From: a virus
Length of the DNA: 64,000 nucleotides
Virus record (IMG/VR): IMGVR_UViG_3300021964_000014
Direction: 5' to 3' (one strand)
Below, in pieces: positions 22,879 to 52,610 of this stretch (its first letter is position 1; every line of letters starts with the position of its first letter). Both the position numbers and the translations under genes were made by a program. The notes beneath the pieces were generated by a model. It did no database searches. It was not told where the DNA came from and saw only the letters and a list, made by a program, of their open reading frames with translations.

Positions 22879-23364
22879 TTATAGTCTTTGTCTAGCGATT
22901 CCTACTTTATCTGCTCTTGTTAAGTGACAATCTAATACTAGAGATATAGATTCTCCGTATCCAGAGGCACGTTCTACATTGTAATTATTATTTCTACCGT
23001 AGAATAACTGGTTCTCCTTAACTGAATCTACTTCATAATAGTCTTCATGCCACATTACTATATCCCCTACCTCAGGAACAAGTTGTATATCTTCTAAATC
23101 TCTTCTTAATAGTGCAAATGATGCTTCTCTTCCTAAATCAGGTCCAAATTCATCTACATTATATACTTGATCACCTCTAGTTATTAAACAATTTAACTTT
23201 ACTGCTTCTAAGTAAGTCTTTTCTAATGCTTCTCCGTATAAATTAGTAGAAGTATCAGCAATACTGAGCTTGTAGATGAGTATTTCTTGCTCAACTACAT
23301 CTTTTAATAGCTCTCTATTAATACTTACTAATAGATCAAAATCTCTGTTACTTCCAAATAGCAT
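22879..23364 (-). CDS. gp14: Neck/head-closure protein (T4 gp14-like)
   Basis: NLYGEA...K.Y, DEFGPD, VPEVGDIVMW...YYEV motifs; position after gp13-like gene. Confidence 0.75.
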   Translation of the reverse strand: MLFGSNRDFDLLVSINRELLKDVVEQEILIYKLSIADTSTNLYGEALEKTYLEAVKLNCLITRGDQVYNVDEFGPDLGREASFALLRRDLEDIQLVPEVGDIVMWHEDYYEVDSVKENQLFYGRNNNYNVERASGYGESISLVLDCHLTRADKVGIARQRL

Positions 23365-23663
23365 TACTTCTTTTCTATTGTTTCTTCTGCTATCTCAATC
23401 TTAATTATATTAGGATATTTTGATGTAGCATTGTTTTTAAACGAATTAAACGCCTCTGAGGCTTCTTTCTGACTTATTAGTTTCACTTTAAACGTCATTG
23501 CACCCATTTCTGCTGATGAACCAGCATTAGTTACTGTGGTAACTCCGGGTAAAGCACGTAAAAGTTCAGCTAAATTTTCACTTTCACCTTCTTTGAACAT
23601 AACACGTACCATACCTTCATAGGTATTAAATAATATCTGTTCTATTATGGTGATTAATTTCAT
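23364..23663 (-). CDS. Hypothetical protein (99 aa) with cargo-like leader MKLITIIEQ
   Basis: ORF coupled to both neighbours; LRALPGVTTV small alpha/beta domain. Confidence 0.7.
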   Translation of the reverse strand: MKLITIIEQILFNTYEGMVRVMFKEGESENLAELLRALPGVTTVTNAGSSAEMGAMTFKVKLISQKEASEAFNSFKNNATSKYPNIIKIEIAEETIEKK

Positions 23664-24805
23664 TATCCTACATGTATAGTCAGTGGAACATTCGATAAGG
23701 TAGTTTTAAGGAATTCAGCCTCTTGAGACTGTGCTTCCATCTGAGATCCTCTCGATGTTTCGTTTAACATTTCTCTTAAGTTAGTCAATAAAGCATCTTT
23801 TTCTGTTCTAGCATCAGCTAACAAGTCAGATTGATTTAATGTTGCTTCTGAGCCTGGTACTGGTACTGTTTGATACTTTCCTCTTATGTACCCTAGTAGT
23901 TCTTTAGCTAATGCTAAAGTATATTTAAAGATCCACTGTCTTCCTACACTATTAATATGTTCATATGTTGGGTTATTATAAGGAACTTCTGCTACATTAG
24001 TAATTAGCCCTGGGGAATTATTAAAGTTGATAGCAGATTTATCATCTGACTTATAGTATTCAAACATTAAACGACCACTATTAGTAGGTACTGGGAATAC
24101 TTTTAATTGGTTATTTACTAATTCAAAAGTAAATGTTGATTTTCTTATTTGATCATTAAATTCTATTGCTTGAGTCTTTAATATATCGTAAGAAGCTGGC
24201 ATTAATAAGAAATTAACACCGGGACTATAAGCTCCAAATTCAAAAGCGTCCATTAATGACTGTATACCTGTACCTGTACCAGCATATGGGTCAAAGTACC
24301 TCTGTATTGCTGGTGGTGCTTCATAAAATACCTTTCTTATCTCTATTCCACCTACTATTCCTTGGTCAGATGCCCAAGCATCTAAATCATAGTTTTGAAG
24401 TGAAGCAGTGATATCTAAAGAGCCTGAGTATTTAGTTACGTTACCGCCTACTCCTGCTTCAGTCCCGTAGTTTTTAGCAATCTGTACAAATCTATTTATA
24501 TTTGATTCTACTAATTGATTATTTACAGAACTACCGGTAGAAGCTCCTTCTAAATTTAGATAATTTTCTCTAATTTTATATTGAAATACTTCGTTACCGT
24601 AAGTAGTAATAGCTTCTTCAAAGCAAGCATAAAAAGAACCAGACTGGAGTTCTACGTCCATTAACGGATATCCTAGTCTAGTAGCACAGAATGTAGCAAC
24701 TTTATCTGCATCCGATTGAAAGGATGTATCGTTGTCATAAAATCCGAAAGGAGTAGATCCTGTAGTGAAATTTGAAGATCCGTTCCATATACTAATATTG
24801 GCCAT
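23663..24805 (-). CDS. gp13: Neck/head-tail adaptor (T4 gp13-like)
   Basis: RLGYPLMDVEL, WIFKYTLALAKELLGYIRGKY..VPVPGSEATLN, ends LTIHVG. Confidence 0.85.
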   Translation of the reverse strand: MANISIWNGSSNFTTGSTPFGFYDNDTSFQSDADKVATFCATRLGYPLMDVELQSGSFYACFEEAITTYGNEVFQYKIRENYLNLEGASTGSSVNNQLVESNINRFVQIAKNYGTEAGVGGNVTKYSGSLDITASLQNYDLDAWASDQGIVGGIEIRKVFYEAPPAIQRYFDPYAGTGTGIQSLMDAFEFGAYSPGVNFLLMPASYDILKTQAIEFNDQIRKSTFTFELVNNQLKVFPVPTNSGRLMFEYYKSDDKSAINFNNSPGLITNVAEVPYNNPTYEHINSVGRQWIFKYTLALAKELLGYIRGKYQTVPVPGSEATLNQSDLLADARTEKDALLTNLREMLNETSRGSQMEAQSQEAEFLKTTLSNVPLTIHVG

Positions 24806-24817
24806 AGAGTATAGTTT

Positions 24818-24829
24818 TATAATAAATAG
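24818..24829 (-). promoter_or_regulatory. Putative late promoter CTATTTATTATA
   Basis: Identical to the 8036-8047 motif. Confidence 0.65.
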
Positions 24830-24850
24830 TAAGGTATTGTAATAAGAGCT

Positions 24851-25537: not shown

Positions 25538-25560
25538 AGGCAAAAAACGTTTATTGTATA

Positions 25561-25571
25561 ATAATAAATAG
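25561..25571 (-). promoter_or_regulatory. Putative late promoter CTATTTATTAT
   Basis: Recurrent motif between the capsid terminator and phoH. Confidence 0.6.
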
Positions 25572-25587
25572 TTGATCGCTAGTAAAT

Positions 25588-25620
25588 AAAAAAAAGAAAG
25601 GGGCCAAAAAGGCCCCTCTC
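25588..25620 (-). terminator. Rho-independent terminator after the major capsid gene
   Basis: GAGAGGGGCC-UUUUU-GGCCCCUUUC followed by U8. Confidence 0.9.
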
Positions 25621-25646: not shown

Positions 25647-27218
25647 TTACACTGCTAACATGTCAGAGATGTAAATCTTACCGTAGAATTCTGGTCTAAT
25701 CATCTTCTTCGCATAACGAGTCATGATACCTTTTCTTGGAGTGAAGGTATTAGGATCGTATACTAAAGGAGTCATGATTAATGGTACATATGGAGCATAT
25801 ACAGCACCACTTTCTAGGAACTGACCACCTCTAAATCCTAATAGGATAGTGTTTTCAGTCATATAAGGGTTTTTGTATACTTTATATCTACCGTTAAGTT
25901 GTCCAACTTTTTGAACACCCATTGCAAACTCAGCTTGGTCACCGTCAGTTTGTGCAGCATATCCTGGAATAGATTCTAAGATAGTTGCAACTGCTGGAGA
26001 ACATACTAGGAAGTTAGCACCTCCTCTAAGAGTTTTTTGGTGAATTTTGTTAGATACTTTTTGGATTTTAGTTCCTAAAGTTTGGAACCATTGTCCTTGA
26101 GTATTGTAGAATCCACTTGAAGCAGTAGCCCAAGCAGAACCATTCCATACTCTATTGTTTTCAGCAGACCACTTTTCAGTTGTTCTTGCACCGCCGATCA
26201 ACATATCTAAGATCTCAAGATCAATCTCCATAGAGATATACTCACTCAATAAAGATGTTAACTCAGCCTCAGCATCAATACTGTGGTAAGCGTTAAGATC
26301 TTGAGCGAATTCTGGAGTCCATTGTGCTTTCAACTTTCTAGTTTTAGCAACAACTGCCTCAGATTTTAACTCTACATTGATTTCTGGGATGTTGATAGAT
26401 CCAGCAGGAGCGTCTTCAAAGTCTCCTCTTGAATTGTCAGCTGGTACAGCATGCCATTTGATAGCACCTGTAATTGCACCTGCAGCAGTTGCTGTTTTAG
26501 CGATTACAAATACTAAATTACCACTACCGTCAACATAAGTCAATTCAGGGTTAGAAGTAATGTCAGTTGACCCAGATAAGATTCTGAAAGCTCTTACACC
26601 GTCAACATCATATCCAGCAGGAGCTGCAGCAGATACTGTAAAGTAATCAGCAGGATCCTTGTCGTCGTCAAAGTTTACTGATGCAGATGCAGCAGATCCA
26701 GTAGCGACAGCAGATAGAGCAACGTCAGATCCAGTAGCGACAGTATATCCGAATGCACCAGCACCGTATAGACCACCAGAAGGATCAACATCTACTCCCA
26801 TTTTATTCACAACTGATACGTTTCCGTATAAGCTTGAATCGTTAGTTTTTCCGTGTCCAGCAGTACCGTATTTAAAGTCTAAATAAAATACTAGTCCAGA
26901 AGGAAGGTTCATTGGTTGTACAGAGACGAAATCTTTAGATGAGATTTGTGCGAATACCTTTCTTACTAAAGGTAGAGCAACACCAGCCCATTGTTCAGAT
27001 CCACCACCTGCAGCGCCGATTGCAGAAGTACCAGTAGATGATTGCTCAGCTACGATTTGTTTTGCTTGGTTCTCTAACATGATAGACATGTTAGCTGTGT
27101 CTTTTTCGTTTAGACCTTCAAGCAATCCAGAAGCACCCCACTTATCAGCTAACCTTTTTGCGTCTTCTTGAAGGGCTTTGTAGCCGTTCGCGCTTTCTAA
27201 TAGGTTGTTAATTTCCAT
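25647..27218 (-). CDS. gp23: Major capsid protein (T4 gp23 family)
   Basis: VSVQPMNLPSGLVFYL, AKTRKLKAQWTPEFAQDLNAYHSIDAEAEL, YAPYVPL, DPNTFTPRKGIMTRYA; propeptide probably ends at IVAE. Confidence 0.97.
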   Translation of the reverse strand: MEINNLLESANGYKALQEDAKRLADKWGASGLLEGLNEKDTANMSIMLENQAKQIVAEQSSTGTSAIGAAGGGSEQWAGVALPLVRKVFAQISSKDFVSVQPMNLPSGLVFYLDFKYGTAGHGKTNDSSLYGNVSVVNKMGVDVDPSGGLYGAGAFGYTVATGSDVALSAVATGSAASASVNFDDDKDPADYFTVSAAAPAGYDVDGVRAFRILSGSTDITSNPELTYVDGSGNLVFVIAKTATAAGAITGAIKWHAVPADNSRGDFEDAPAGSINIPEINVELKSEAVVAKTRKLKAQWTPEFAQDLNAYHSIDAEAELTSLLSEYISMEIDLEILDMLIGGARTTEKWSAENNRVWNGSAWATASSGFYNTQGQWFQTLGTKIQKVSNKIHQKTLRGGANFLVCSPAVATILESIPGYAAQTDGDQAEFAMGVQKVGQLNGRYKVYKNPYMTENTILLGFRGGQFLESGAVYAPYVPLIMTPLVYDPNTFTPRKGIMTRYAKKMIRPEFYGKIYISDMLAV

Positions 27219-27254: not shown

Positions 27255-28289
27255 TTAAATAATACCAGCTAATTTTTGCATTCTTTGCACCGCAGAAGAT
27301 ACTTCACTAATTACTTCTGGTTTACTTGCAGTAGTTCCAGTAGCTTTAGATGCACTTCCTAATTTGCTTTCGTTTACTTTAGTTGTCTTTTTAGTTACAA
27401 CGTTTTCAGATACTGTTTCGAATACTAATTTTACTTCTTTAACAGTTTCTGCTTTATCAAAAGCAGCGATGATGTTAACTTTTTGACTCTCACTAAGGTT
27501 GTTAGCTTTGAATACTTTATTAACATACATAAGTTTTGCGTTTAGAAGATTTACTTCCTGTAGTTGACTCTGTAAAGTTTCAATAGTTGCTAAAGCTTCT
27601 GTTAATTCAGAATTGTCTTCTTCTTTAACTTCTTCTTCGTTTACTACATCTTCTTTTACTTCCTCTTCTACTTCTTCAGTAACTTCTTCTTCAATTTCCT
27701 CGTTAGTAGCTGATTCTAACTCGGCTAATAATTCGTCTAGATCGATTTCGTCATCTTCAGCACCTACTTCCATGTCGTCCATTGCTGGTTCCATTTCCGC
27801 ACCTGCGTCCATATCTACTCCGTCTAGCTCTTCTTCTCCACCGTCACCCATTTCTTGAGCGATAATGTCTCTGATAAGGTTCTTTAGGTCATCGACTTCC
27901 ATGTCTTTAACTTCAATATCCTCATCTTCCTCTTCGGCTTCTACCTCTTCGTCGCCTTCAGCTTCGTCCTCAGATTCTTCTGAGTCATCCTCGGCTTCTA
28001 CTACGTCTGATTCTTCCATCTTATCATCGTCGTCGCTATGCATTGCTTCTTCTACTCCTTCAGATTCTTCAACAGCTGTATCAACTGCTTCCTCTACTTC
28101 TTCTTCGACTTCGTTTACTACTTCTTCTTCAACTTTGGAATCTTCCATTTCTTGAAGTTTAGCAGCTAACATGTCCTTTAGATGTGGAGTTAAAGACTCT
28201 TCTAGAGCTTCTTTAGCGTTAGCAATAGCGGCTTCTCTAATAGATTTAGCTTCAGCAATAGCTTGCTTGAATAAATCTTTGTTTGCCAT
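27255..28289 (-). CDS. Prohead core scaffolding protein (gp22-like)
   Basis: Very acidic and coiled-coil, many x-x-E sites, ends RMQKLAGII; lies directly upstream of the capsid gene. Confidence 0.85.
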   Translation of the reverse strand: MANKDLFKQAIAEAKSIREAAIANAKEALEESLTPHLKDMLAAKLQEMEDSKVEEEVVNEVEEEVEEAVDTAVEESEGVEEAMHSDDDDKMEESDVVEAEDDSEESEDEAEGDEEVEAEEEDEDIEVKDMEVDDLKNLIRDIIAQEMGDGGEEELDGVDMDAGAEMEPAMDDMEVGAEDDEIDLDELLAELESATNEEIEEEVTEEVEEEVKEDVVNEEEVKEEDNSELTEALATIETLQSQLQEVNLLNAKLMYVNKVFKANNLSESQKVNIIAAFDKAETVKEVKLVFETVSENVVTKKTTKVNESKLGSASKATGTTASKPEVISEVSSAVQRMQKLAGII

Positions 28290-28427: not shown

Positions 28428-29033
28428 TTATACTACACCAGATAACTTAGGTGCTAACTTTTTAACCGCTATTATAAGCTCGTCTGCTTTAGTACCAGAA
28501 AGTCCTGCTTCAACTGCACCCATAATAGGGCTGCCAGATGTTAAAGCTTGAATTGAGCCGTAAACCGAGAATGCAGCTGCGATGGCAACTCCGACATATA
28601 AAAGAAATTCTGCAGCTGTTGTTAACTTTTCATCATTTACTTTACCATTTTCATCAGTATAAAATTTAGATGCGAACCCAGTGTTTTTTATAACCCACTT
28701 GATAATCTTAATATACTTCTTATGTAAGTTATGACCTTGATCTTCTATCCATTTAGCAGCTTTGACTTCTTTATCTTGTTCCTCTTCGCTTTTGCCTAGA
28801 AGTTTTTTAAAAATTTTTACTACCCACTGTACTATTCTACCTATATATTCTATAATTTTTGGAGCTGCTAATATTGCGCCAATAATTAAAGGAATGCCTA
28901 CAGCTTCATCTAATTTTCTTTGTTCTTCTTCAGAAAGAGTGGATAGAGGAAGGTCATCACGTAATGGGGCTTCTAAAGCTAGCCTTAATCCTCTTTCTTC
29001 TGCGGATTCTAATATAAGTTCAGATAGTTTCAT
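28428..29033 (-). CDS. Putative membrane protein (201 aa) with cargo-like leader MKLSELILES
   Basis: Hydrophobic segments VGIPLIIGAILAAP and FLLYVGVAIAAAFSVYG; sits between protease and scaffold. Confidence 0.7.
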   Translation of the reverse strand: MKLSELILESAEERGLRLALEAPLRDDLPLSTLSEEEQRKLDEAVGIPLIIGAILAAPKIIEYIGRIVQWVVKIFKKLLGKSEEEQDKEVKAAKWIEDQGHNLHKKYIKIIKWVIKNTGFASKFYTDENGKVNDEKLTTAAEFLLYVGVAIAAAFSVYGSIQALTSGSPIMGAVEAGLSGTKADELIIAVKKLAPKLSGVV

Positions 29034-29611
29034 TACGCTCTTAATATATCGTTAATAATAGAATCTAAATTCATATATTTAGAAACTTTCTTTTTACCTT
29101 CATTTAACGATATAGGGTTCATAAATGCACCGTGAGTAGAAGGATTAGATACAAAGTCCCAACATACTAATTCAAAGTCTGGTTGTACTTCTAAATTACC
29201 TTCGTTAGTCTGTTGAACTGATCCGGTACCTCTAGAACTAATACCGATAGTATGTCCTGCTTTGATTATTTCTTTTACAATATTACCTGCTGGTGTATTT
29301 AGTAACTCAACTTTACCCATTAAGTCATCACCTTTCCACCATAGGTCTTTTACAATATGAGAAGCATTTTTTAAAGATACAACAGGAGATTCAGGATGAT
29401 CTAATTCACCATATGCATTACCATTCTTAACGAATTCATCCATATACTTACTCATCTCTCTTTCTAATATAGCTTTAGAATAAACTCTACCGTTTTGATT
29501 CTTAGCTGTTGCTCTTTGCATAACACCTTCAACCTCAAATACACCTGGTCTAGTTTTTGACTCGGTAATAATAGGCCTAAATGTTGATACTTCTACTAAT
29601 AATTGTGCCAT
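29033..29611 (-). CDS. gp21: Prohead core protease (T4 gp21 family)
   Basis: NQNGRVY, GELDHP (catalytic His), GISSRGTGS (catalytic Ser), WDFVSNPSTHGAF. Confidence 0.95.
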   Translation of the reverse strand: MAQLLVEVSTFRPIITESKTRPGVFEVEGVMQRATAKNQNGRVYSKAILEREMSKYMDEFVKNGNAYGELDHPESPVVSLKNASHIVKDLWWKGDDLMGKVELLNTPAGNIVKEIIKAGHTIGISSRGTGSVQQTNEGNLEVQPDFELVCWDFVSNPSTHGAFMNPISLNEGKKKVSKYMNLDSIINDILRA

Positions 29612-29614: not shown

Positions 29615-31726
29615 TTATTTTTTAGTCTCTCTTAATGATCCGTTTACCGGAGGTGTATAAACAGTATCTTTAACTGGTTCTGCTTCTCCTAAAGGAGCTT
29701 CACCTGAGTTATGTCTGTCTATATCTCTTTGAGAGATAACTCTTACTTTTGGTTGATCTAATCCTTTTGTAAAACCTTTTTTAGTTACAGGTCTAAGATC
29801 TTTTATAAATGCTGTTTCAATAGCAGGAGCTAAAAATCCTCCTACTTTTAAGCCTTCTTCATTTCTTATATCCCCCATAGCATCAAATGCTTTCTGAATC
29901 TTACTTCTAGTCTTGTCGTAATATGATTCTATATCTGTTACTACATCTTGTAATTGTAGTAGTACTGATTTCATTCCTTCAAATCCTCCGTAAGTATCAG
30001 TCATTTTAGCTAATTCTTGAGTAGCAGCTTCGTTAAGAGTGCCTTCTTCTAGTACTTTTGAAATGATAGCTTTAATGTTTTCTTTCACCATTTCATCTTT
30101 ACCCATTGCTGTTTTGATAGCTTTATCTTTAGCAGCCATATAATCATCTCCATCAACGTCTCCGTCTCCGTCGTGATCTTTACCTTTCTTTTCATTTAAG
30201 TTATAATGATCTTGTAAAGCTTCGATAACTTCTTCTGCTTCTTCTGCTTCACTGAATCCTGATTCTCCTGCTCTATCTTGAATTAAAGAAATAAATTCAT
30301 CTAAGCTACCTACTCTTTCAGTTACTACTGCTTCAGCTTCTTCTAATTCTTTTCTATTAGGATTAGCTCCTTCATTAAATCCAATTAAAGTTTGCTTGAT
30401 AGCTTTCTTAAAGTTTCTAATATGATCTAAAGCTTCTGATTTATCTCCATCATTAATAGCATCGATAGCTAAACCTAAATGACTGTTTTCTGAATGATAA
30501 TTAACATCTTCAAAAGAGTCATATAAAGCTTGTAAAGTAGCAATTGGAGTGTTTAATCTAATCTTCATACCAAATTCTAACATACCTTCATAATCGAAGT
30601 CAGAAGAAAACAGATCGCCTGGTTTAAAAGCTTTTACGGGTTTATCTTCTCTACCGTACTTTTCGATAGCTTTCATATCTTCGTCAGATAATTTTTCTTC
30701 CATATTTTTAGCAGCTGCCTTATACTTGGTAGCATCGCTTCCGCCAGTTTCTGGTTTCTTATTACCTTTTCTATCAACACCCATTACTTCTCCAACATCA
30801 TCTCTATTGATAGTTTCGTATTCATCGTAATTATTCCATACATCATTGATGTCGTTATAATCTATATCTCCGCTAAAAATATCTACTCTATGAGTTCTGA
30901 TAAAGTCTAAAGCATCTTGAGTACTTACTTTATGACCTGAATCTGGATGGCCATTTATAGTTAAAAAATCTATAATTTTTCTAAGAGCCATTTTTCTATT
31001 ATGGTTGACTGTTCTTTCTCCATCTATACCTGGTTCGGTAGGGATAGGATCGGCTTCTTTAATACCGTGTAGTTTGTCATACCATGCTTTAAATTCTGGA
31101 TCTCTATCTAAGTTAGCTAATAATTCTGGAGCTAATGAATCTAATCCGTGATCGTCTACCTGCTGTATAGCTTTTTCCGCATCGTCTGGATCTTCCACGT
31201 ATTTTAAAATAATATTAAGTAAAGCATTCATACTTTCATCATCAAATACTGTTGGTACTCCAGCTTCTTCTTTTAAGTCGGCTTTTTTCATACCGTTAAA
31301 AGTATCTACCTTATTTTTTTCATTTGGTTCAACCATTTGATCATGCTTGTCGACCTTATTAGACTCGCCTGACATTAGATTAAGGTAGTGTAGTGGATTC
31401 TTTTTTAAATTTTTTAGAGCTTTATCTTTAGCTTTAGCTTGATCCTCTTCAGATACTTTATCATGAGACATAAGTCCCATTGCTTCTAATTCAGCATCGA
31501 CTCCTCTTCTGATAGCTTCATCAGATATATTGTCGAAAGCAGAATATTCTGGCATTTTATCTGCTTCAGATATCATTCCTTTCTGTTTAAGTATGTTTAC
31601 AGTATCTTCAAATCCTAAGAATTGATTGATAAGTTGGGGCCATGCCATACGAGCATCTCTTACGAATTGTTTCTTTGAAAAGGATTCGTTTAATACCCCT
31701 CTATATTTTTCAGTTAACGTTTTCAT
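29615..31726 (-). CDS. Putative internal head polyprotein (703 aa)
   Basis: Acidic; repeated LNE/ISE/LKE/IKE/VTE/VKE sites between short modules; DHDGDGDVDGDDY motif; located between portal and protease. Confidence 0.6.
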   Translation of the reverse strand: MKTLTEKYRGVLNESFSKKQFVRDARMAWPQLINQFLGFEDTVNILKQKGMISEADKMPEYSAFDNISDEAIRRGVDAELEAMGLMSHDKVSEEDQAKAKDKALKNLKKNPLHYLNLMSGESNKVDKHDQMVEPNEKNKVDTFNGMKKADLKEEAGVPTVFDDESMNALLNIILKYVEDPDDAEKAIQQVDDHGLDSLAPELLANLDRDPEFKAWYDKLHGIKEADPIPTEPGIDGERTVNHNRKMALRKIIDFLTINGHPDSGHKVSTQDALDFIRTHRVDIFSGDIDYNDINDVWNNYDEYETINRDDVGEVMGVDRKGNKKPETGGSDATKYKAAAKNMEEKLSDEDMKAIEKYGREDKPVKAFKPGDLFSSDFDYEGMLEFGMKIRLNTPIATLQALYDSFEDVNYHSENSHLGLAIDAINDGDKSEALDHIRNFKKAIKQTLIGFNEGANPNRKELEEAEAVVTERVGSLDEFISLIQDRAGESGFSEAEEAEEVIEALQDHYNLNEKKGKDHDGDGDVDGDDYMAAKDKAIKTAMGKDEMVKENIKAIISKVLEEGTLNEAATQELAKMTDTYGGFEGMKSVLLQLQDVVTDIESYYDKTRSKIQKAFDAMGDIRNEEGLKVGGFLAPAIETAFIKDLRPVTKKGFTKGLDQPKVRVISQRDIDRHNSGEAPLGEAEPVKDTVYTPPVNGSLRETKK

Positions 31727-31931
31727 CTAAGTAATCAAACATTTTAGTGTTATAAGGTCTTTTTTTTTGCTTCACAGTCTTGTAACCTAGCTTTTCAGCT
31801 TGTTTTGTCGCTCTATTTTTTTTATTGCCTTTTGAAAAAGCAAATGGAGTTTGATAGCCTGCAACACCGGCTGTCGTACTCAATTCTTCTATTACTTCTC
31901 TTACTGCTTTAATTAACTTACTTCGTTTCAT
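31710..31931 (-). CDS. Small head-associated protein (73 aa)
   Basis: MKRSKLIKAVREVIEE leader, then basic STTAGVAGYQTPFAF...KK module. Confidence 0.7.
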   Translation of the reverse strand: MKRSKLIKAVREVIEELSTTAGVAGYQTPFAFSKGNKKNRATKQAEKLGYKTVKQKKRPYNTKMFDYLDENVN

Positions 31932-42850: not shown

Positions 42851-43073
42851 TCTTTTTTCCTGATTTCATATTAGCACACCAATGATACATTTTTCCTTTC
42901 TCACCGCCGTACTTTTTAGCTTTTGCTCTCAAGCTAGTTACAGAACCTTTACAACTAGCTCCAGATTTTTTTACTCTACCTGGTCTAGATTTACCTTTAA
43001 CTTTACCATCTTTAAAGTTTTCATCTAATACTTCTTTTACGAGTTCTAATATTTGTGACTTTTTAAAGGGCAT
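42834..43073 (-). CDS. Small basic protein (79 aa) with cargo-like leader
   Basis: MPFKKSQILELVKEVLDE, then K/G-rich module ending MYHWCANMKSG. Confidence 0.75.
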   Translation of the reverse strand: MPFKKSQILELVKEVLDENFKDGKVKGKSRPGRVKKSGASCKGSVTSLRAKAKKYGGEKGKMYHWCANMKSGKKNENNR

Positions 43074-43260
43074 TTCTTCTTAATAATTCTCTTTTAATTA
43101 TATTCTTTTTCTTTCTATAAGAATTACTTTCATACATCTTTTTTAATTCTTCTGTAGATGTATTAGACGGTGTATAATGAATCCAGGTAAATGTATTTAA
43201 CATCTTACCTCTCTTGTCTTTATCGTATTGTTTAGTACTAGGTTTTAATTTAGCAGGCAT
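43063..43260 (-). CDS. Small basic hypothetical protein (65 aa)
   Basis: Start reassigned to ATG 43260 (MPAKLKP), which overlaps the upstream stop as TAATG. Confidence 0.7.
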   Translation of the reverse strand: MPAKLKPSTKQYDKDKRGKMLNTFTWIHYTPSNTSTEELKKMYESNSYRKKKNIIKRELLRRNAL

Positions 43261-43739
43261 TATTTCTTTTTCCAAATTTCGCCTCTTCTACAACGAACAA
43301 CTGCCCCGGAGGCGTATGCTGACGGCCAGGTGTCATATTTTTGTTTTGCTAATCTAGTACATCTATCGTCTTTCTCCATTATAACCTCTTTACCTTCTCT
43401 TTCTTGTAATAAACCTACAACTAGATTTCTAATATCTTCTCTTGTTACTTTTGCTTTCTTAGTATTTTTCACGACTTGTTTTCCTTTAGATCCGGCTTTC
43501 TTTTTCTTTTGAGCTGTTGCTGCTCTTTGGCCTTTAGTTAAACTCTGTGCTTTAGCTTTTGGTAAACATCTATCAGGATTCTTCTTATTTTTAGAAGTAC
43601 CACAAGGTCCTGCTATATTACCAGAGGATGATATTCTCACCCACTTTTCTTTTTTAAACCAATCACGTAAAGATTCCTGTACGAGTTCTCTCATAAAAGC
43701 ATAAACATCGGCAGGTATCTTTTTATTGGTATCGGTCAT
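43260..43739 (-). CDS. Basic two-module protein (159 aa), DUF5872-like from memory
   Basis: VQE|SLRDWFKKEKWV...PCG...RCLP module and IME|KDDRC...WPSAYASGAVVRCR module. Confidence 0.65.
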   Translation of the reverse strand: MTDTNKKIPADVYAFMRELVQESLRDWFKKEKWVRISSSGNIAGPCGTSKNKKNPDRCLPKAKAQSLTKGQRAATAQKKKKAGSKGKQVVKNTKKAKVTREDIRNLVVGLLQEREGKEVIMEKDDRCTRLAKQKYDTWPSAYASGAVVRCRRGEIWKKK

Positions 43740-44098
43740 TATCCTCCTATTTTTACAACTTCAGATAAAAGTTTAATTACAACACCGGTTAGTACTGTAA
43801 ATAAAATCCATAATGCTTTATTGACTCCATCTCTCCATCTTGACAGATCTTGAACTTCAGCCATTTTATTTGCAAACTCTTTATCTCCTTGTTCCATTTT
43901 TCTCCTGAAGGCTGTGTTTTGATTTGTCTTAACGATTACTCCGTCTTCAGGATTGAGTAATGTATACTTTAACTCCGACATATCTTCTTTTAAATCCTTA
44001 ACATCTTCTACCATAGCCTGGAGTTCTCCATTAGGCATATGTTTCTTTATATGTACAAGCTCTGATAATACGGATTCTAGCAGCTGCTTTTGTGTCAT
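43739..44098 (-). CDS. Coiled-coil protein with one C-terminal TM helix (holin/XhlA-like topology)
   Basis: ALWILFTVLTGVVIKLL at the C-terminus; leader MTQKQLLES. Confidence 0.55.
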   Translation of the reverse strand: MTQKQLLESVLSELVHIKKHMPNGELQAMVEDVKDLKEDMSELKYTLLNPEDGVIVKTNQNTAFRRKMEQGDKEFANKMAEVQDLSRWRDGVNKALWILFTVLTGVVIKLLSEVVKIGG

Positions 44099-44140: not shown

Positions 44141-44716
44141 CTACTCTACCTTACTCCGAAGGTATGTTATAAATTCTTGGAATTTGTCAGTATACATCTC
44201 TTTTGCCTTAGATTTATTAACCTTCCAGGTTTCTACATCACCCTGTTCAGTAACAAAAGAATCCTCTGCATTTAACATATCCTGTAGTTCTTGCTCTAGT
44301 TGAGCTATGAAAAATTCTATATTCCCTTTACGGGCATGTATTAAATAATTTTCATATTGACCGTTCCTTTTAAGTTCAGCTTCATAGTCAATAAAACAAT
44401 TGAAACACATTTTATTAACCTTATAAATCTTTTTACTCAAATGGTGAGACATAGACCCACTACATTTTGGACAAGCTAAAGGAACATGTACTGCTTTTTT
44501 AGCTTTATCTAATTTGGTGATGTTTTGCTTTAAACCATTTTTAATGGTCCACTGCTTTCCATTTTCTTCCCAGATATCTCCTTCCTCATGTCTAGTTGAT
44601 TGTCTATTATAGCCAGATTGATACTTAGTTTTAGACGTATAATCCTTATTAACTAAGTTTCTTATTCTCTCTACGTCTGATGGTCTAAACTCTTTTTTTA
44701 GAGCATTATCACTCAT
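44141..44716 (-). CDS. Zinc-finger-containing hypothetical protein (191 aa)
   Basis: CPKC...CFNC; EGDIWEENGKQWTIKNG. Confidence 0.7.
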   Translation of the reverse strand: MSDNALKKEFRPSDVERIRNLVNKDYTSKTKYQSGYNRQSTRHEEGDIWEENGKQWTIKNGLKQNITKLDKAKKAVHVPLACPKCSGSMSHHLSKKIYKVNKMCFNCFIDYEAELKRNGQYENYLIHARKGNIEFFIAQLEQELQDMLNAEDSFVTEQGDVETWKVNKSKAKEMYTDKFQEFITYLRSKVE

Positions 44717-45299
44717 AACCTAATTCTTTTAGTCCTTGAATAGCAGGACCAATATCACCACCTTTAACTCTAAAAGCGATTCCTCCAGAAGCTATCCATT
44801 CTTTAATATTTGATTTTTTATCGTCTATAAGAATGCTATTTTCGTTAGCATATCTTTGTTTATCTGCTGAGTAAGCCATTATTACTTTAGGCTTAGGGTT
44901 TAAATTATTTTTAGCCCAGAGTTGTTTACCCAATCTAGATCCATTATCTCTAGAAGGAGAAGTTAAAAGGTCTGGTTTATATGGAGATATAAAGTTCCAT
45001 AATTCTTTACCTTGCGGCATCCAGTCCATTCCAACCCAAAACCCTATACCTACAATCTTATCAATAAAGTTCCAAAACTCCTCTATGCCGAATATAGCTT
45101 CAAAGTCTTTAGGTTTTACTACCTTCTGAATATCTTTCATAGGGTAATAATCAGGACCTACTTCATTAAGTTTTTGATGAAATCTCTTTTCGAAATCAGT
45201 TAGTACACCATCCATATCACAGTATATCTTGTAAGGAGGTACTTCTTTTTGTTCCGGAAGCGGATAAGCTTCTAATAAATCTACAATACTTGTATTCAT
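44709..45299 (-). CDS. HAD-superfamily 5'(3')-nucleotidase (NT5C-like)
   Basis: IYCDMDGVLTDF (motif I), LLTSP, K, ILIDDKKSNIKEW (motif IV). Confidence 0.88.
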   Translation of the reverse strand: MNTSIVDLLEAYPLPEQKEVPPYKIYCDMDGVLTDFEKRFHQKLNEVGPDYYPMKDIQKVVKPKDFEAIFGIEEFWNFIDKIVGIGFWVGMDWMPQGKELWNFISPYKPDLLTSPSRDNGSRLGKQLWAKNNLNPKPKVIMAYSADKQRYANENSILIDDKKSNIKEWIASGGIAFRVKGGDIGPAIQGLKELGYE

Positions 45300-45362: not shown

Positions 45363-45490
45363 TTTCTAGTGACTTTTTTTTCATAAGGCATATCTTGTAT
45401 CATGGTTGTGCTTCCGCATTTACTACATTTTGCTAAATATGAACCTGTTTTCCAGTATGACTTGATCATATACTCGTTACAGCACTTCAT
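45350..45490 (-). CDS. Small Cys-rich zinc-ribbon-like protein (46 aa); not in ORF track
   Basis: MKCCNEYMIKSYWKTGSYLAKCSKCGSTTMIQDMPYEKKVTRKVGS*; TAATG coupling to the upstream gene. Confidence 0.6.
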   Translation of the reverse strand: MKCCNEYMIKSYWKTGSYLAKCSKCGSTTMIQDMPYEKKVTRKVGS

Positions 45491-47163
45491 TAACTATTCT
45501 TTAAATTATCTTCCCAGTTTCTAAAAGTTATATTGCCTAATGTATATGCTTCTTTTTCTAATTCTAATAACTTAGAATCAGCAGTAGTATCTTGTGTCTG
45601 TATATTATGTAAAGTACCTTGTAAGTTTTGCATATGATGAATCATTTCATGAGCATATGATCTTACAATATCTTTATCATGTCTTCCTAAGGTATATAAA
45701 ACTATTTCTCTAGCATTAGGATCGTAGTATGCTGTTTTACCAAAAAAGTTAGAAGCATTTGCTTCATCTTTTCTTAATTTAACTTCAGGTAAAGGTTCTA
45801 TATTCATTCCATTATCCAACATGTATTCTGTTAGAGAAGTAATATAGTCTTTGAGTTGAGGTTTGGATTGTTCTACACCTTCTTTCATTTCTGGATGAAA
45901 CATAAACTTAACAATGGTAGCATCTTTAGCTACTTCTTTACCGTCTATTTCTATTCCAATTGGATAAGGTTTAGTTTTATCATCTGCCCAATAAGCTACG
46001 TCGTAACTTTTATCTTCATTACTTGTTACTAATAGACCTCTATTGTATGTATCTTCTTCTGCTTGGAGTACAACCATTTTACCGGTAGGAAGAATCATAT
46101 CACCCATTAGTTTAATATCACCTTCGTCGTACCCGTCTTTATTATATCGATTTTCCTGTAAATTAGAAATATCAACAACCCATATTTGAGGGTCGATTCC
46201 ATTCTTTACTAATCCTGATAGTCTGGTATTACCAGCAACTAAGTCGTAATCGTTGTCAGAGAACTTAACAGCTATCGACATTTCGATTGTACCTCTTTTA
46301 AATGCGTCTAAGAATCTTTGTTTTTTAGGTTCTTCTAAACTATCAAAGTTGAGGTCTACATTTCCTAAGTTTCTTTTAATAGAACTATAAGAAACAGGTT
46401 TTCCTTTTTTAGCTATATTTAACCAACCTTCTTTACCCATTTTTACAAATTCTGGGTATCGGTTAGCTTCTTCCCATTCAGCATCAAAGTTAGGATTAGT
46501 GTATGTTATGTCTTTATTTTCATTAAAGTAACCTTCTACAAATCCTTCAATATTTGATCCTAATATTTCTGCTACTATTTTATCTTTCAAATCGTTTAAT
46601 ATATTTAATATTTCTTCTCTAGATAATTCTTCAGGGAAAAAATCTACAATTGTATCTAAATTACCAGATAGTATATTCTTTCTAAAATCTGTTGCTCTTA
46701 CTCCTGATCCAGGTGCTGATGCAAAAGCTAACCCTTGTACGTTATCAACGTTGTTAAATGTTGTAACTCTCCTTAGATCTACAAAGTCTTCTTCACCTCT
46801 TATCCCTGTTACTGCTACAAATTCACTTTCTGTATTTTCTCTTGCATAATCTTTAGCAGCAAACATTGGATTTTTTTGTCCATCTACTATTTCAACATTA
46901 CCTAGATGTTTCTTATAAATATTCCAAATATGAGTAGCTTCCTCTTTATCTATTCCATTTCTTTCTCCTCCACCTATAAAAATGATTACTTTATCTATTT
47001 TAGGTTTATTGTTATTATTACCTTTAAATAAACTTGAAGCTTTATCTTGGTAATCATCTTTATTATATAACGTACCATTATAAGAGCCGTCGAGTAAAGA
47101 TTTTACTACGTTAAAATGACCTCTATGAGGTGGTTTAAATGCTCCTGGGTATAATGCTATCAT
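45490..47163 (-). CDS. Multidomain protein: HIGH-family nucleotidyltransferase + ParB/Srx-like + unknown + HExxH metallopeptidase
   Basis: YPGAFKPPHRGH and VRATDFRK; YDLVAGNTRL; AYYDP...RSYAHEMIHHMQ...LEKEAY. Confidence 0.8.
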   Translation of the reverse strand: MIALYPGAFKPPHRGHFNVVKSLLDGSYNGTLYNKDDYQDKASSLFKGNNNNKPKIDKVIIFIGGGERNGIDKEEATHIWNIYKKHLGNVEIVDGQKNPMFAAKDYARENTESEFVAVTGIRGEEDFVDLRRVTTFNNVDNVQGLAFASAPGSGVRATDFRKNILSGNLDTIVDFFPEELSREEILNILNDLKDKIVAEILGSNIEGFVEGYFNENKDITYTNPNFDAEWEEANRYPEFVKMGKEGWLNIAKKGKPVSYSSIKRNLGNVDLNFDSLEEPKKQRFLDAFKRGTIEMSIAVKFSDNDYDLVAGNTRLSGLVKNGIDPQIWVVDISNLQENRYNKDGYDEGDIKLMGDMILPTGKMVVLQAEEDTYNRGLLVTSNEDKSYDVAYWADDKTKPYPIGIEIDGKEVAKDATIVKFMFHPEMKEGVEQSKPQLKDYITSLTEYMLDNGMNIEPLPEVKLRKDEANASNFFGKTAYYDPNAREIVLYTLGRHDKDIVRSYAHEMIHHMQNLQGTLHNIQTQDTTADSKLLELEKEAYTLGNITFRNWEDNLKNS

Positions 47164-48092
47164 GCTAAAAATGCTTGTACTTTTGAATCTATTTCTTTAG
47201 GAGTTGAATGCTGTAAAAGTTTTTGAAACTTTTCATTAAATAACATATCAGCTATATTATCTAAAACTTCAGTTTCTCTTTGATCTTGTTTTGCTTTTCT
47301 ATCTCTATACTTTTTTAGAACATCTCTCATTTTATCTAATCCAGGTCCTACTCCATTTTTATCATAAGCATCTTTAAATGCTTTCTTTAAAGCTCTATCT
47401 TCTCCGTACCCTTCTTTATCGTAATCTAAACTACCAATATGTTTTTTAAACTCTTCTTCTTCTTGAGTAGATAATTCAATAGGTTTTCTAAAAGTAGAAC
47501 CCCCTATATTGTTTGCTTCATTATATCTTTCTAAATAATCTTTAATACCAGAAGGTCCATTTTTTGCTGCTGTATTAAAAGCTTCTATTTCTTTACTATA
47601 TTTTCCTCCTCTATCGGAAACATGAATAGCTAAATTACCATTAGTAATTTTATCATATTCAGCAATTAGTTGGTAAACATTTCTCCAGGTTGAGAAGACA
47701 GCTGATCCGGGTACGTTTCTATCAGCTCTAGAAAAGTTAGAAATATAAGAAATCATAGGGTGAGTATACACCATTACCATGAATACATTATACCCTTTAT
47801 TAATTAGCTCATTAACCTTCTTAGGGTTAGAAGCTGTCGTATCCCATACAAAGCTAGTTCCTTTGTCTGATAGTTCCTCCGCCTCTTTGTCCGCTAGTCG
47901 AGCCCCTTGAGATAGATTGTTGTACGCTGGATGATCCTTGTCTTCCACGTATTTGTCTGGGTTGACTTGGGGGAGTGATGATAGGTTTAACTGGTTTAAC
48001 AGGTATGTTTTCCCTGCTCCAGCTCCTCCCGCCATTACTACCACTTTCGGGCCTGAGGTAGATTCTAGGATTAGATCTGTTAATTTGATCAT
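47160..48092 (-). CDS. P-loop small-molecule kinase (zeta toxin/AAA_33-like) with leader MIKLTDLILES
   Basis: VMAGGAGAGKT, VNPD, FVWDTT, R...R lid (RADRNV). Confidence 0.8.
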   Translation of the reverse strand: MIKLTDLILESTSGPKVVVMAGGAGAGKTYLLNQLNLSSLPQVNPDKYVEDKDHPAYNNLSQGARLADKEAEELSDKGTSFVWDTTASNPKKVNELINKGYNVFMVMVYTHPMISYISNFSRADRNVPGSAVFSTWRNVYQLIAEYDKITNGNLAIHVSDRGGKYSKEIEAFNTAAKNGPSGIKDYLERYNEANNIGGSTFRKPIELSTQEEEEFKKHIGSLDYDKEGYGEDRALKKAFKDAYDKNGVGPGLDKMRDVLKKYRDRKAKQDQRETEVLDNIADMLFNEKFQKLLQHSTPKEIDSKVQAFLA

Positions 48093-50221: not shown

Positions 50222-50247
50222 ACAATGTTCTGTAACTAGTTATACCT

Positions 50248-50280
50248 ATAATATAAGAAGAATTAGTCTAAATATCAACT
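50248..50280 (-). promoter_or_regulatory. Host-type promoter upstream of primase
   Basis: agTTG-N20-TATATTAT. Confidence 0.6.
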
Positions 50281-50696
50281 AATTTTAGATGTTTTTTCTG
50301 ATTTACCATAACATTTGAAGGTCTGATATCTAATTCATCAGGGTTTATTCCATATTGTTGAGCTTCTCTTTCTACTGCATCAATCCATTCTTCCGGAATG
50401 TTACCTTTAAACTCTCCTAAAACCTCCATTTGTATAATACCTAATTTAGGGTTAATAACTTCTACATCGTATATTCTAGCGAAGTTATTTGTTTTTTTAC
50501 CTTTAAGTAGTTGTGCGTGTTCTAATTCGATTTCGTCTGTAGTTACTTTATATACTCTGCCGTTAAGTAAATAAGCAGATCCGTAGTCACCTGAGCCGAG
50601 GTGCTTTCCTCCTTGATCTAGTATTTTATCAACCTGTTTTTCAAAATCAGGATCATAGTACAAAATCTCTCCTAATATAACATGTGATAATCTCAT
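50268..50696 (-). CDS. Minimal protein-kinase-fold protein (142 aa) with leader MRLSHVILGE
   Basis: LGSGDYGSAY (Gly loop), VYK, helix C Glu, QME, DIRPSNVM (catalytic loop), LVD. Confidence 0.8.
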   Translation of the reverse strand: MRLSHVILGEILYYDPDFEKQVDKILDQGGKHLGSGDYGSAYLLNGRVYKVTTDEIELEHAQLLKGKKTNNFARIYDVEVINPKLGIIQMEVLGEFKGNIPEEWIDAVEREAQQYGINPDELDIRPSNVMVNQKKHLKLVDI

Positions 50697-50700
50697 ATCT

Positions 50701-51000
50701 TTAACTTACATCCATTGCATCATTGTGATCTGCTGCGTATCCTTTTTCTTTAAGTGCAGCCACAATTTGATCTAAAACGTCTATATCGTAGCTACTAGGA
50801 AGTTCTAATCCAGTTAAATCTTTTATAAACTTTTCTGCGTCGTCACCAAATCTAATTTTCTCTTTCCATTGTATATTAGCAGTTACTGGTTTATCGTATA
50901 AGTATATTCCGTAAAATCTTCCGTAATCAGTATATGTTATATCGATTCCTTTTATTTCAAAATCTACCTTAAACTCTAATATTACGCTACTTAACTTCAT
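50701..51000 (-). CDS. Hypothetical protein (99 aa) with leader MKLSSVILE
   Basis: ORF coupled to neighbours; no family recognised. Confidence 0.75.
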   Translation of the reverse strand: MKLSSVILEFKVDFEIKGIDITYTDYGRFYGIYLYDKPVTANIQWKEKIRFGDDAEKFIKDLTGLELPSSYDIDVLDQIVAALKEKGYAADHNDAMDVS

Positions 51001-51260
51001 TGTTTATATATTTTAACTTTAAGATCTCCAGTTCCTTTTATTAAACGGTGATAGGTCTCTTTTGGTATAAATAGTTTATTTTCAGATAATACCTGTGGAG
51101 TGTCGTTATCTAGTTGGAATTTCCAATCTGTTTGATGCATAGCTTGAACGATTCTATCTTCTTTATCTCTATGCCAAACAAATTCAAAAGCTGATGTGTT
51201 AGATGAAAATTCTCTAACTGTATATTCTTCTGTTACCGATTCTGTATAAGGCCTACTCAT
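50997..51260 (-). CDS. Small cupin-fold protein
   Basis: WHRDKEDR...WKFQLDN...FIPKETYHRLIKG; start reassigned to ATG 51260 (TAATG overlap). Confidence 0.7.
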   Translation of the reverse strand: MSRPYTESVTEEYTVREFSSNTSAFEFVWHRDKEDRIVQAMHQTDWKFQLDNDTPQVLSENKLFIPKETYHRLIKGTGDLKVKIYKQ

Positions 51261-51811
51261 TAGGTTGCGAACCATTTCATGAAAAATTCAGACCCTCCAG
51301 TATGAGTTCCAGAATACAGAGAAAAAAGGTTGCCTGTATAGGAATACCCGTTATTAAATGCTCCTGCTGAGTTATAAAATGAATAAGAAGACACACTGTA
51401 ACCGTAATCAGCTGCGATTGTTAAAGTAATAACTGAATAGTCAGAGTAGCTTGTACCTCTAAGGTATAAAGACCTTCCGTTAGTAACATGATCTGTATGA
51501 GAAATTGATAATGCTGCTGTTCCGTTAGCAGCGTCACCTGATTTCCATTTCCACCCATTGTACGTAGTAGGGCTAGAAACAGTTACTGTACAGTTTGAAG
51601 CTTGTAATGCTATCACTCTGTAAGCTTTATTACTAATAAAAGAAAACTTATCTGCATTAGCAGCAACCCCAGTGTTTGGAGCATAATGATTTTCTAATAT
51701 CTCTTTTGTGGAAATATTTGATGTAGGTTCGATTTTGAATGCTGAAGCAGAGTTTAGTTGAATGTCGCTTCGCAAACCAATATTTGTAGTCCCTGCGTTA
51801 TATACTGGCAT
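51260..51811 (-). CDS. Hypothetical beta-rich protein (183 aa), possibly virion-associated
   Basis: S/T/G/Y-rich composition; no family recognised. Confidence 0.65.
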   Translation of the reverse strand: MPVYNAGTTNIGLRSDIQLNSASAFKIEPTSNISTKEILENHYAPNTGVAANADKFSFISNKAYRVIALQASNCTVTVSSPTTYNGWKWKSGDAANGTAALSISHTDHVTNGRSLYLRGTSYSDYSVITLTIAADYGYSVSSYSFYNSAGAFNNGYSYTGNLFSLYSGTHTGGSEFFMKWFAT

Positions 51812-51824
51812 AATGTTGGTTTTT

Positions 51825-52610
51825 TTACCAGTACCCGGAGAAGTTAGAACTCCCCCCTAATGACTTCCAATATCTACCGATATTGCAAGACCAGTAACCG
51901 GCTTTAGTTTTATCTTTTTTCTGTGCACATTTATGTCTAGCGGCAAAAGATGCTCTTGCACCTTTCTTTTTAAACTTAACTGATAATCCAGTATCACCGA
52001 ATGATACTTTCTTTACGTTACCTTTTTTAGATTTAACATAGACGTAGAATTTTTTACTCCCACCTCTTTTAGGTTTGTTAAGTTGAACTTTTTTACCTTT
52101 ATATTCAGCTTCAGGAATATATTCTACAGAAGCTTTTAACATTTCAAAGCCGTTATAATCGAAAGATTCGTTTTGTAGGGATACTGCTTTTCTAAACTTA
52201 TCCATATTCATCTGACCTCCGATAGATTCTACTAACTCTTTTATTAAGTCATAATCAATCATTTCATCTATTGAAGCAGCTTCATCGATAGTATCTTCAT
52301 TTTCGATCATTTCATCGATTAGGTTACCGATTTCAAACATTGGATTGTAGTTTGGAGATACCATTGGAAGATCTAAAGGAACTCTCATTCCATTATATTC
52401 TGCGTATTCTCCAATATCAGTAGTTTCTAATAGTAGAGTATCTTGTTCATTTAATTCTATTTTACCGTCTCTCCATGCTTCTCTAGCTTCTTTAAATAGT
52501 TGTATAAAGCTATCAGAGCTATAACGGTAGACATGCTCAGATAAGGTTAGACCATTATCTAAATGGTATTTTAATGATGGGTAGCCGATAAGTTCTTTTA
52601 ATTGTATCAT
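51825..52610 (-). CDS. Modular hypothetical protein (261 aa): acidic modules plus a very basic C-terminal module
   Basis: MIQLKELI leader; LNE, IDE, IDE, IPE sites; KKFYVYVK...VSFGD...SFAARHKC...AGYWSC. Confidence 0.75.
   Translation of the reverse strand: MIQLKELIGYPSLKYHLDNGLTLSEHVYRYSSDSFIQLFKEAREAWRDGKIELNEQDTLLLETTDIGEYAEYNGMRVPLDLPMVSPNYNPMFEIGNLIDEMIENEDTIDEAASIDEMIDYDLIKELVESIGGQMNMDKFRKAVSLQNESFDYNGFEMLKASVEYIPEAEYKGKKVQLNKPKRGGSKKFYVYVKSKKGNVKKVSFGDTGLSVKFKKKGARASFAARHKCAQKKDKTKAGYWSCNIGRYWKSLGGSSNFSGYW

Follow-up and report, generated by a model that had tools for sequence, protein, structure and literature searches.

Glutamate-ended N-terminal leaders on unrelated proteins beside the head genes of an uncultured marine relative of phage T4, with the features of capsid-targeting propeptides

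The IMG/VR virus record IMGVR_UViG_3300021964_000014, of which a stretch of 64,000 nucleotides (nt) is the window analysed here, belongs to an uncultured marine relative of phage T4 and shows all its genes on the minus strand. It contains a T4-type head module with the genes in the T4 order (portal, small proteins, protease, acidic scaffold and capsid protein), where a gp20-like portal, the acidic scaffold and a gp23-like capsid protein adjoin the protease. The portal is annotated as Gp20 in the syntenic region of Flavobacterium phage vB_FspM_immuto (hereafter immuto). Beside this module, proteins otherwise without similarity, which BLAST clustering separates into different families, share a leader with the form of a propeptide: a short N-terminal segment (6-19 amino acids, aa) with a terminal Glu (P1, from which the P positions are counted back) and an aliphatic residue at P3 (Table 1). 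An earlier note had described eleven such N-termini, and similar starts of the capsid protein and the protease, as an address tag for capsid cargo, and all of them are present on the minus strand exactly as and where it had quoted them.

Table 1. Head proteins, proteins with a leader or a candidate leader, and copies of a repeated decamer in the window. The slash stands directly after the Glu of the leader; h, hydrophobic residue; x, any residue. Coordinates of the leader are in brackets.
Feature	Coordinates	Strand	N-terminus
Prohead maturation protease, T4 gp21 type	29033..29611	-	MAQLLVE-7 ... IITE-17/SK
Acidic scaffold protein, gp22-like by position and composition	27255..28289	-	MANKDLFKQAIAE-13/AKS
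Major capsid protein, gp23 type	25647..27218	-	Propeptide with conserved sites LLE-8, GLLE-34, (I/M)LE-49, IVAE-58
Zeta-toxin-family P-loop kinase	47160..48092	-	Class A, MIKLTDLILE/S (48063-48092)
142-aa protein with a probable minimal protein-kinase fold	50268..50696	-	MRLSHVILGE/I (50667-50696)
5'-3' deoxyribonucleotidase-like enzyme	44709..45299	-	MNTSIVDLLE/A (45270-45299), linker, then YCDMDGVL
201-aa protein with hydrophobic segments, directly downstream of the protease	28428..29033	-	Class A, MKLSELILE/S (29007-29033)
707-aa acidic protein	37399..39522	-	Class A, MHKLEKLILE/S (39493-39522)
99-aa acidic protein	50701..51000	-	Class A, MKLSSVILE/F (50974-51000)
73-aa basic protein between portal and protease	31710..31931	-	Class B, MKRSKLIKAVREVIEE/L (31884-31931)
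79-aa basic protein	42834..43073	-	Class B, MPFKKSQILELVKEVLDE/NFKDGK (43020-43073)
159-aa basic protein, absent from the first list	43260..43739	-	...FMRELVQE-22/SLRDWFKKEKW (43674-43739)
Probable tagged 99-aa protein beside the head-tail adaptor gene	23364..23663	-	MKLITIIE/Q (23640-23663)
703-aa acidic protein upstream of the protease	29615..31726	-	Conserved ..EKYxxV(L/x)xE-14 (VLNE-14)
Protein with an acidic N-terminal part rich in hxE and a basic C-terminal module; tag doubtful	51825..52610	-	MIQLKE-6
XhlA-like protein with a C-terminal membrane segment; tag doubtful	43739..44098	-	MTQKQLLE-8
Decamer TATTTATWWT	48555, 44136, 44130, 34737, 25570, 24828, 21277, 8046, 2319	- (coding)	

Two rules were applied to the N-termini: a T4 rule fixed before further inspection ([LI]-x-E, with the Glu at residue 7-20), and a tight rule defined post hoc ([LIV][LIV]E ending at residue 6-12). 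Expected counts in the window were taken from internal windows of the same proteins. The T4 rule picks out 16 of the 49 window proteins, against 6.1 expected (P 2e-4), and the tight rule 10, against 0.8. Fifteen of the 33 genes between 23364 and 53089 follow the T4 rule, and outside these limits, among the fibre and tail genes, only one of 16 does so (Fisher P 0.008). An independent test used 160 related viral loci around the protease and the NMNAT-like gene, in which genes were found with a simple caller that reproduces nearly all the published immuto annotation of that region; their 2,342 proteins were clustered by BLAST, giving a set of 150 families from 161 contigs. Among the 112 families without a window member, 49 follow the T4 rule, against 15.4 expected (P 1e-14), and 22 the tight rule, against 4.0 expected (P 8e-11). 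When each of the 150 families is represented by a single protein, a hydrophobic-hydrophobic-Glu (hhE) motif ends at residue 9 in seven families and at residue 10 in 15, a sharp peak over the background of 0.59 families per position elsewhere. The families are bimodal: tagged families show the motif in 65-100% of their members, and the portal, terminase, adaptor, fibre, tail and primase families score zero. The earlier note had placed the fibre, terminase and exonuclease genes outside the tagged set, and this holds for the first two; the exonuclease is a weak candidate among the leader-like families. The genome-wide distribution was measured on the complete genome of immuto, the rest of which served as control. 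In its 100-130 kb region, which contains the head genes and orthologues of the tagged genes of the window, 21 of 35 genes follow the T4 rule, and elsewhere 31 of 193 do so, about the chance rate (Fisher P 2e-7). The N-terminal motif is far above the internal-window expectation both in the window and in independent families; the tagged genes number about 12-16 in 30 kb of the window, and the candidate families up to about 40 across relatives. The tag is restricted to genes beside the head module, and it is nearly certain that it is a real, position-specific and selected feature. A general feature of late genes or virion proteins was also considered, and was rejected because the fibre, tail, portal and terminase families are untagged.

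The Leu, Ile, Lys and Glu of the leader are retained in five tagged families despite changes of codon, with three to five synonymous codons in use, among TTA/CTA/CTT/CTC/TTG, ATA/ATT/ATC, AAA/AAG and GAA/GAG. In the 707-aa acidic protein, L4, L7, I8, L9 and E10 are invariant through such changes. As judged from these codons, the leader is under selection at the protein level. An artefact of composition, of the choice of start codon, or of a translation-start signal in the RNA has to be weighed in this AT-rich genome, which is poor in Shine-Dalgarno sequences: its G+C content is 31-39%, Lys, Leu, Ile and Glu are common, and Lys at position 2 is a general bias. Such an origin is extremely improbable and is effectively refuted by the enrichment over internal windows in independent families with its peak at residue 9-10, by the chance rate of immuto genes outside the 100-130 kb region and by the residues kept through synonymous codons, and the fibre and tail proteins of the same genome are untagged.

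Three classes of leader are distinguished. Class A has the consensus MKLSxLILE and is 9-10 aa long; class B, MKKSQLxxLV(K/R)E, often runs on to a second Glu at residue 16-19, its fuller form being MKKSQLxxLVKEVLxE; and class C, MxNFDL(R/K)KFLxE, has 12 aa. Leader usage differs by lineage, since in immuto class A is much less common than classes B and C. At least five immuto proteins (record 1803, 103806, 117631, 118632 and 125241) start with M(E/A)(D)NF(D/N)L(K/R)(K/S)FL(V/T)ENKLT, which is the class C leader continuing past its Glu and resembles the EFIAE of T4. A leader-like motif with the Glu at residue 8-12 is present in 42 of the 150 families, the weak candidates including, besides the exonuclease, a group with MNLIDKAILE/W. 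Across these 42 tagged families, with Glu at P1, P7 is Leu in 26, P4 is Leu, Ile, Phe or Val in 34, and P3 is Ile, Leu or Val in 41. P7 and P4 are hydrophobic overall, with the leader of the nucleotidase failing at both (Ser at P7, Asp at P4).

That unrelated internal proteins can share a short leader is well known from the T-even phages, in which ip genes have been found by means of it (PMC12373910, PMC3012670, PMC9026906). The T4 leaders have 10-19 residues, and in that of IPIII residues 4 and 7 are the main determinants of targeting and residues 8 and 10 those of processing (PMC9026906). These four residues correspond to P7, P4, P3 and P1, where the class A tag has exactly Leu, Leu, Ile and Glu; the targeting residues of the T4 sequence are Tyr4 and Phe7. 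In the T4 genome (NC_000866) the N-termini are MKTYQEFIAE/A in ipII and ipIII, MAKINELLRE/S in gp24, MNEPQLLIE-9 in gp21, MLKEQLIAE/AQK in gp22, MEGLIE in gp67 and MELITE in Alt. Mullaney and Black reportedly described, in 1996, the capsid-targeting sequence (CTS) of T4 IPI, IPII and IPIII, which is removed by gp21. The window resembles this system in a short leader of about 10 aa on unrelated proteins, in which positions 4 and 7 are hydrophobic, P3 is aliphatic and P1 is Glu, and in a gp21-family protease, a T4-type head module and some small basic cargo. It differs in the sequence of the tag, which is MKLSxLILE, with two longer classes, rather than MKTYQEFIAE, and in a cargo that includes predicted enzymes and large acidic proteins; in the marine phage the system is predicted from the sequence. 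T4 has three internal proteins and the T-even phages at least ten (PMC12373910), and here a stretch of 30 kb contains about a dozen tagged genes.

The head proteins of the window carry comparable sites. The protease belongs to the gp21 family, matching Pfam Peptidase_S77 (PF03420) with 121.7 bits (cut-off 27) and phrog_207 with E 2.5e-54, and the domain match begins at residue 21, directly past the Glu. Its IITE-17/SK site is kept in 50 of 50 distinct orthologue N-termini and LVE-7 in about one quarter of the orthologues. MEINNLLE and MAQLLVE, the starts quoted in the earlier note for the capsid protein and the protease, are both present; the conserved site of the protease is the one at residue 17. 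Relatives of the protease are encoded on 533 IMG/VR contigs, and the identity of 84-97% among the best 80 of these 533 indicates an abundant uncultured lineage. The scaffold, located between the protease and capsid genes as in T4, has 23% Glu, 28 [LIVM]xE sites and an isoelectric point (pI) of 4.1, and searches of Pfam and PHROG gave no match to it. The four sites of the capsid propeptide are conserved among orthologues. The capsid protein is 68% identical to that of immuto, has more distant kin in Microcystis phage Mel-JY01, Rhodothermus phage RM378 and T4-like cyanophages, and matches T4 gp23 structures with E 1e-29; in the alignment, residue 15 of mature gp23* falls on residue 66, which puts the mature start near residue 52. 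Immuto, which infects Flavobacterium, is the sole cultured relative, the lineage being otherwise from marine metagenomes. The motifs pair with those of T4: MAQLLVE of the protease with MNEPQLLIE of gp21, QAIAE/AKS of the scaffold with QLIAE/AQK of gp22, and MEINNLLE/SANG of the capsid protein with MAKINELLRE/S of gp24.

T4 packages and injects an ADP-ribosyltransferase, Alt, which is trimmed at ITE-6. Like Alt, the T4 core proteins gp67, gp68, gp22, gp24 and gp21 begin with hxE at residues 6-10, and the protease, scaffold and capsid protein of the window show comparable features; the propeptides of Alt and the T4 core vary from protein to protein, whereas here one nearly identical leader recurs on many proteins. 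Several tagged metabolic enzymes lie beside the NMNAT, primase and exonuclease genes, and immuto encodes GroES and GroEL, which would suit a docking helix for another structure (a complex for replication or nucleotide metabolism, a membrane or a chaperonin), acting independently of the prohead and with the Glu as part of the interface. This role is quite unlikely, given that three head proteins (capsid protein, protease and scaffold) bear these motifs where their T4 homologues do and that the spacing of Glu and P3 equals the specificity of gp21; a typical membrane-targeting helix would be longer and less acidic than the leader, and a docking helix would leave unexplained the Glu junction inside multi-module proteins described below. 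A link of the tag to the protease and the prohead is well supported by these sequence correspondences.

Three of the tagged proteins are predicted enzymes or have a probable enzyme fold. The zeta-toxin-family kinase matches Pfam Zeta_toxin with 48.6 bits (gathering score 22.3), and in a Foldseek comparison its nearest folds are PezT, zeta and AvrRxo1, and also polynucleotide kinases, with template modelling (TM) scores of only 0.33-0.39. Among 35 orthologues L4 and E10 are invariant, and K3, I8 and L9 are at least 90% conserved. A homologue search with the kinase returned only close phage relatives, with no cellular homologue in which to look for the leader, and sequence searches of the PDB with this kinase and with the nucleotidase yielded at most a single weak match, to PezT. 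The 142-aa protein, unusually small for a kinase, shows an invariant Gly-loop, Lys50, D123-x4-N128 and D141 in 22 orthologues; Foldseek relates it to MAP and CDK kinases with probability 1.0 and TM about 0.5, there is no Pfam match, and the chain stops at the DFG-like Asp. AlphaFold models of both proteins, built on orthologue alignments, have an overall predicted local distance difference test score (pLDDT) of 83.6 for the kinase, with residues 1-10 at 49 and strand beta-1 beginning at residue 16, and of 86.6 for the 142-aa protein, with residues 1-12 below 50. In these models the leader lies outside the folded domain of both predicted cargo enzymes. The nucleotidase matches phrog_2643 with E 1e-19 from residue 22 onwards, and its family shows the hhE motif in 83% and hxE in 100% of N-termini. 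In the window, immuto, Pelagibacter phage HTVC008M and Methylophilales phage Melnitz, all of them T4-like, an extension of 19-26 aa with hxE precedes YCDMDGVL, against 5-10 residues before the motif in Atu_ph07, pf16, phiCbK and ME3 (phages grouped by taxon, not by head protease). An extension added in connection with T4-type heads is only suggested, since the comparison is of four phages with four. The extensions of HTVC008M and Melnitz, both classified in the Kyanoviridae, begin with MKYSAFKAETLNLHLVQE.. and MKSIVE.., and the tagging of enzymes may therefore be widespread in marine T4-like phages.

The kinase gene start is overlapped by 239 nt, in another frame, by a lipoprotein-like open reading frame (47854-48522, minus strand), which shows a signal peptide ending in ..LLLTSC and then a low-complexity tail rich in Asn, Tyr, Arg and Ser. 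The gene preceding that of the kinase differs from relative to relative, with a short gap between the two, and the tail may not be translated as called.

Three further tagged proteins, of 73, 79 and 159 aa, resemble the T4 internal proteins in being small and basic (pI 10.0-10.5) once the leader is left out. The 73-aa protein, in a position like that of T4 gp67, has a mature pI of 10.0 and shows hxE in 49 of 49 distinct orthologue N-termini; the mature pI of the 79-aa protein is 10.5; and the phrog_23735 match of the 159-aa protein begins at residue 23. The family of the 201-aa protein shows hhE in 80% and hxE in 100% of N-termini. Orthologues of the 707-aa protein keep (L/I)ILE followed by Ala, Ser, Glu or Gln, and diverge downstream. 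The 99-aa acidic protein, for which profile searches of Pfam and PHROG found no family match, has the motif in 13 of 13 distinct N-termini, and the 99-aa protein beside the adaptor gene shows MKL..IILE, IIKE or IILxE in its orthologues (hhE in 66%, hxE in 100% of its family). The 703-aa acidic protein, with hxE in 92% of its family and 22 [LIVM]xE sites (z 2.4 against shuffles), is likely a prohead-core substrate, judging from these sites. This protein, the 159-aa protein and the scaffold (AIAE-13) had been missed in the first list, possibly together with the protein encoded at 36323-37399 on the minus strand (LYTE-10/W). The latter begins with MNVTDRLYTE-10/WAWR, and in all its orthologues (..AILE/WS.., ..IVIE/WA..) Glu-10 is retained and P4 and P3 are hydrophobic, a motif that could mark one more tagged protein or else belong to the domain.

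Two of the eleven tags first listed are doubtful. In the XhlA-like protein, which has a hydrophobic C-terminus, phrog_937 aligns with residues 5-112, so that the N-terminus is inside the family match, and several orthologues have Asp in place of Glu-8. The protein with MIQLKE shows poor conservation, the motif being present in only 59% of orthologue N-termini; its acidic N-terminal 160 aa contain 13 [LIVM]xE sites (z 4.3) and its Lys-rich C-terminal module matches phrog_7595 at residues 168-243, so that by composition it looks like a propeptide joined to a DNA-associated internal protein. The cargo identities given in the earlier note were borne out: a zeta-family P-loop kinase, a probable protein-kinase fold, a nucleotidase, a protein with hydrophobic segments and small basic proteins (pI at least 10).

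The Glu of the leader recurs at internal junctions in relatives. The mature part of the 79-aa protein is a basic module, N[FY]xDGK(V/K)KGKS(R/K), which in relatives is located behind class B leaders of varied length or inside longer proteins at 10 or more positions, and a Glu directly precedes it in 47 of 47 sequences from 27 contexts. The SLRDWFKKEKW module of the 159-aa protein shows leaders of varying length and a preceding Glu in 28 of 28 sequences. In one relative (L089:4950-6050) a tagged 366-aa protein contains a class A leader, an NMNAT-like segment homologous to residues 219-351 of the 557-aa NMNAT-like protein of the window (45490-47163), and the basic module after ..KLYKE/. Modules are thus exchanged among relatives, and many different proteins end in a fused copy of the basic module, in the form N[FY]xDGK..KGKSRPGRVKK. 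A constant Glu before the modules is what processing at Glu junctions would produce, and the module junctions support processing at some internal sites in relatives. Internal [LIVM]xE sites were also counted against shuffles, and the 885-aa protein is weakly enriched (z 1.8). The plug-and-play character proposed in the earlier note receives some support from these sequences, in which a given mature module can follow various leaders or be embedded in a larger protein, in each case with a Glu before it.

The explanation that fits best, and that we hold with fairly good confidence as a full mechanism, is that the leaders are T4-type capsid-targeting and processing propeptides serving a much wider cargo. 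The amphipathic N-terminal segment, with P7, P4 and P3 hydrophobic and Glu at P1, would dock the protein on the acidic scaffold core during prohead assembly. The Peptidase_S77 protease, active within the prohead, would then cut past the leader Glu, and would also cut the scaffold, the capsid propeptide and the internal junctions of multi-module proteins. The mature cargo, comprising the zeta-like kinase, the putative mini protein kinase, the nucleotidase, small basic DNA-associated proteins and several uncharacterised proteins, would remain in the head and exit with the DNA at infection. The injected payload of the earlier note thus agrees with the T4-type head module and its Peptidase_S77, with a leader that is CTS-like in length, position and P7, P4, P3 and P1 residues, with selection at the protein level and with a leader outside the fold; its remaining steps, the cleavage and packaging of the tagged proteins and their injection with the DNA, are inferred by analogy with T4, as would be any role early in infection or against host defence.

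The most strongly conserved element, hxE, is the cleavage determinant, and the zeta-like kinase could need an inactive state before release. Both points would also suit a leader that is a protease site only, by which the head protease trims or activates the proteins, as zymogens or in a timed inactivation, and they are neither kept in the capsid nor injected. This variant is improbable: P7 and P4, the targeting positions of T4, are as conserved as P3 and P1, and T4 gp21 works in the assembled prohead, so that a substrate must be in the core (PMC5694885).

Several observations weigh against capsid targeting and injection. P1' is not conserved across the tagged families, and some orthologues shift or replace the Glu (LLVD in the protease, the IILxE variants). 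The 707-aa protein is not enriched in internal [LIVM]xE sites over shuffles (z -0.9), and the Glu before the modules could simply be the first residue of conserved modules. Some tagged genes adjoin the primase and exonuclease genes, which leaves their time of expression uncertain, and a nucleotidase or a kinase could well serve the phage in the cytoplasm, with no need of packaging. The whole-genome estimate rests on immuto, which uses mostly other leader classes than the window, and the literature searched yielded no proteomic or N-terminal data on virions of this phage or of immuto.

Other packaging systems resemble the one proposed here in part. Phages phiKZ, 201phi2-1 and SPN3US contain 8 to 19 head-internal proteins cut after Glu, with multi-site propeptides, and package a virion RNA polymerase (PMC5694885). 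In these giant phages P3 is small (S/A/G-x-E), the protease is of the S80 type and the propeptides are long, with no common short tag, whereas here P3 is aliphatic; the protease of the window is S77, not S80, and Ile, Leu or Val occupies P3 in all but one of the 42 tagged families. The Dar proteins of phage P1 and the ejection proteins of P22 are likewise packaged in the head and delivered with the DNA, those of P1 guarding against restriction, but their incorporation needs specific partners (DarA, Hdf) and not a shared cleavable N-terminal tag. The cargo-loading peptides of encapsulins also send unrelated enzymes into an HK97-fold shell by a short common peptide, but this is usually C-terminal and is not removed, and there is no DNA and no delivery. 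The concept itself is already known from the T-even phages; what is new is the marine lineage, the sequence of the tag with its three classes, the number of tagged genes, the predicted enzymatic cargo and the modular Glu junctions. No paper tying capsid targeting to marine phages was found in the library searched, which is incomplete.

A decamer, TATTTATWWT, is repeated in the window, with 10 copies on the coding strand and one on the other. Nine copies are located 23-47 nt upstream of gene starts, zones that make up 3.9% of the sequence, and the genes downstream of a copy include those of the portal, the adaptor, the PhoH-like protein and the fibre, as well as some blocks of tagged genes. In immuto, 11 of 19 copies are upstream of starts. 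Its sequence and position make a phage promoter probable, and it recalls the T4 late promoter TATAAATA.

The T4 CTS has already been used for packaging foreign proteins, and a tag from a different host group could serve the same end. The three internal proteins of T4 all inhibit modification-dependent restriction enzymes (PMC12373910). A comparable pressure is plausible here, since immuto encodes a deazaguanine DNA-modification pathway. Enzymatic cargo such as the kinases and the nucleotidase, if delivered, would widen what is known to enter at injection. It is conceivable, although we put this forward only tentatively, that a marine T4-like lineage turned the CTS into a general delivery system, in which a nine-residue tag and Glu junctions load dozens of interchangeable proteins that are injected before expression, among them the zeta-like kinase, the putative minimal protein kinase and the nucleotidase. 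If so, the genome sequence of an uncultured phage would itself reveal the effectors that it injects, and if the tag works as in T4, the head-carried and injected proteins of many uncultured ocean phages could be listed from their genomes.

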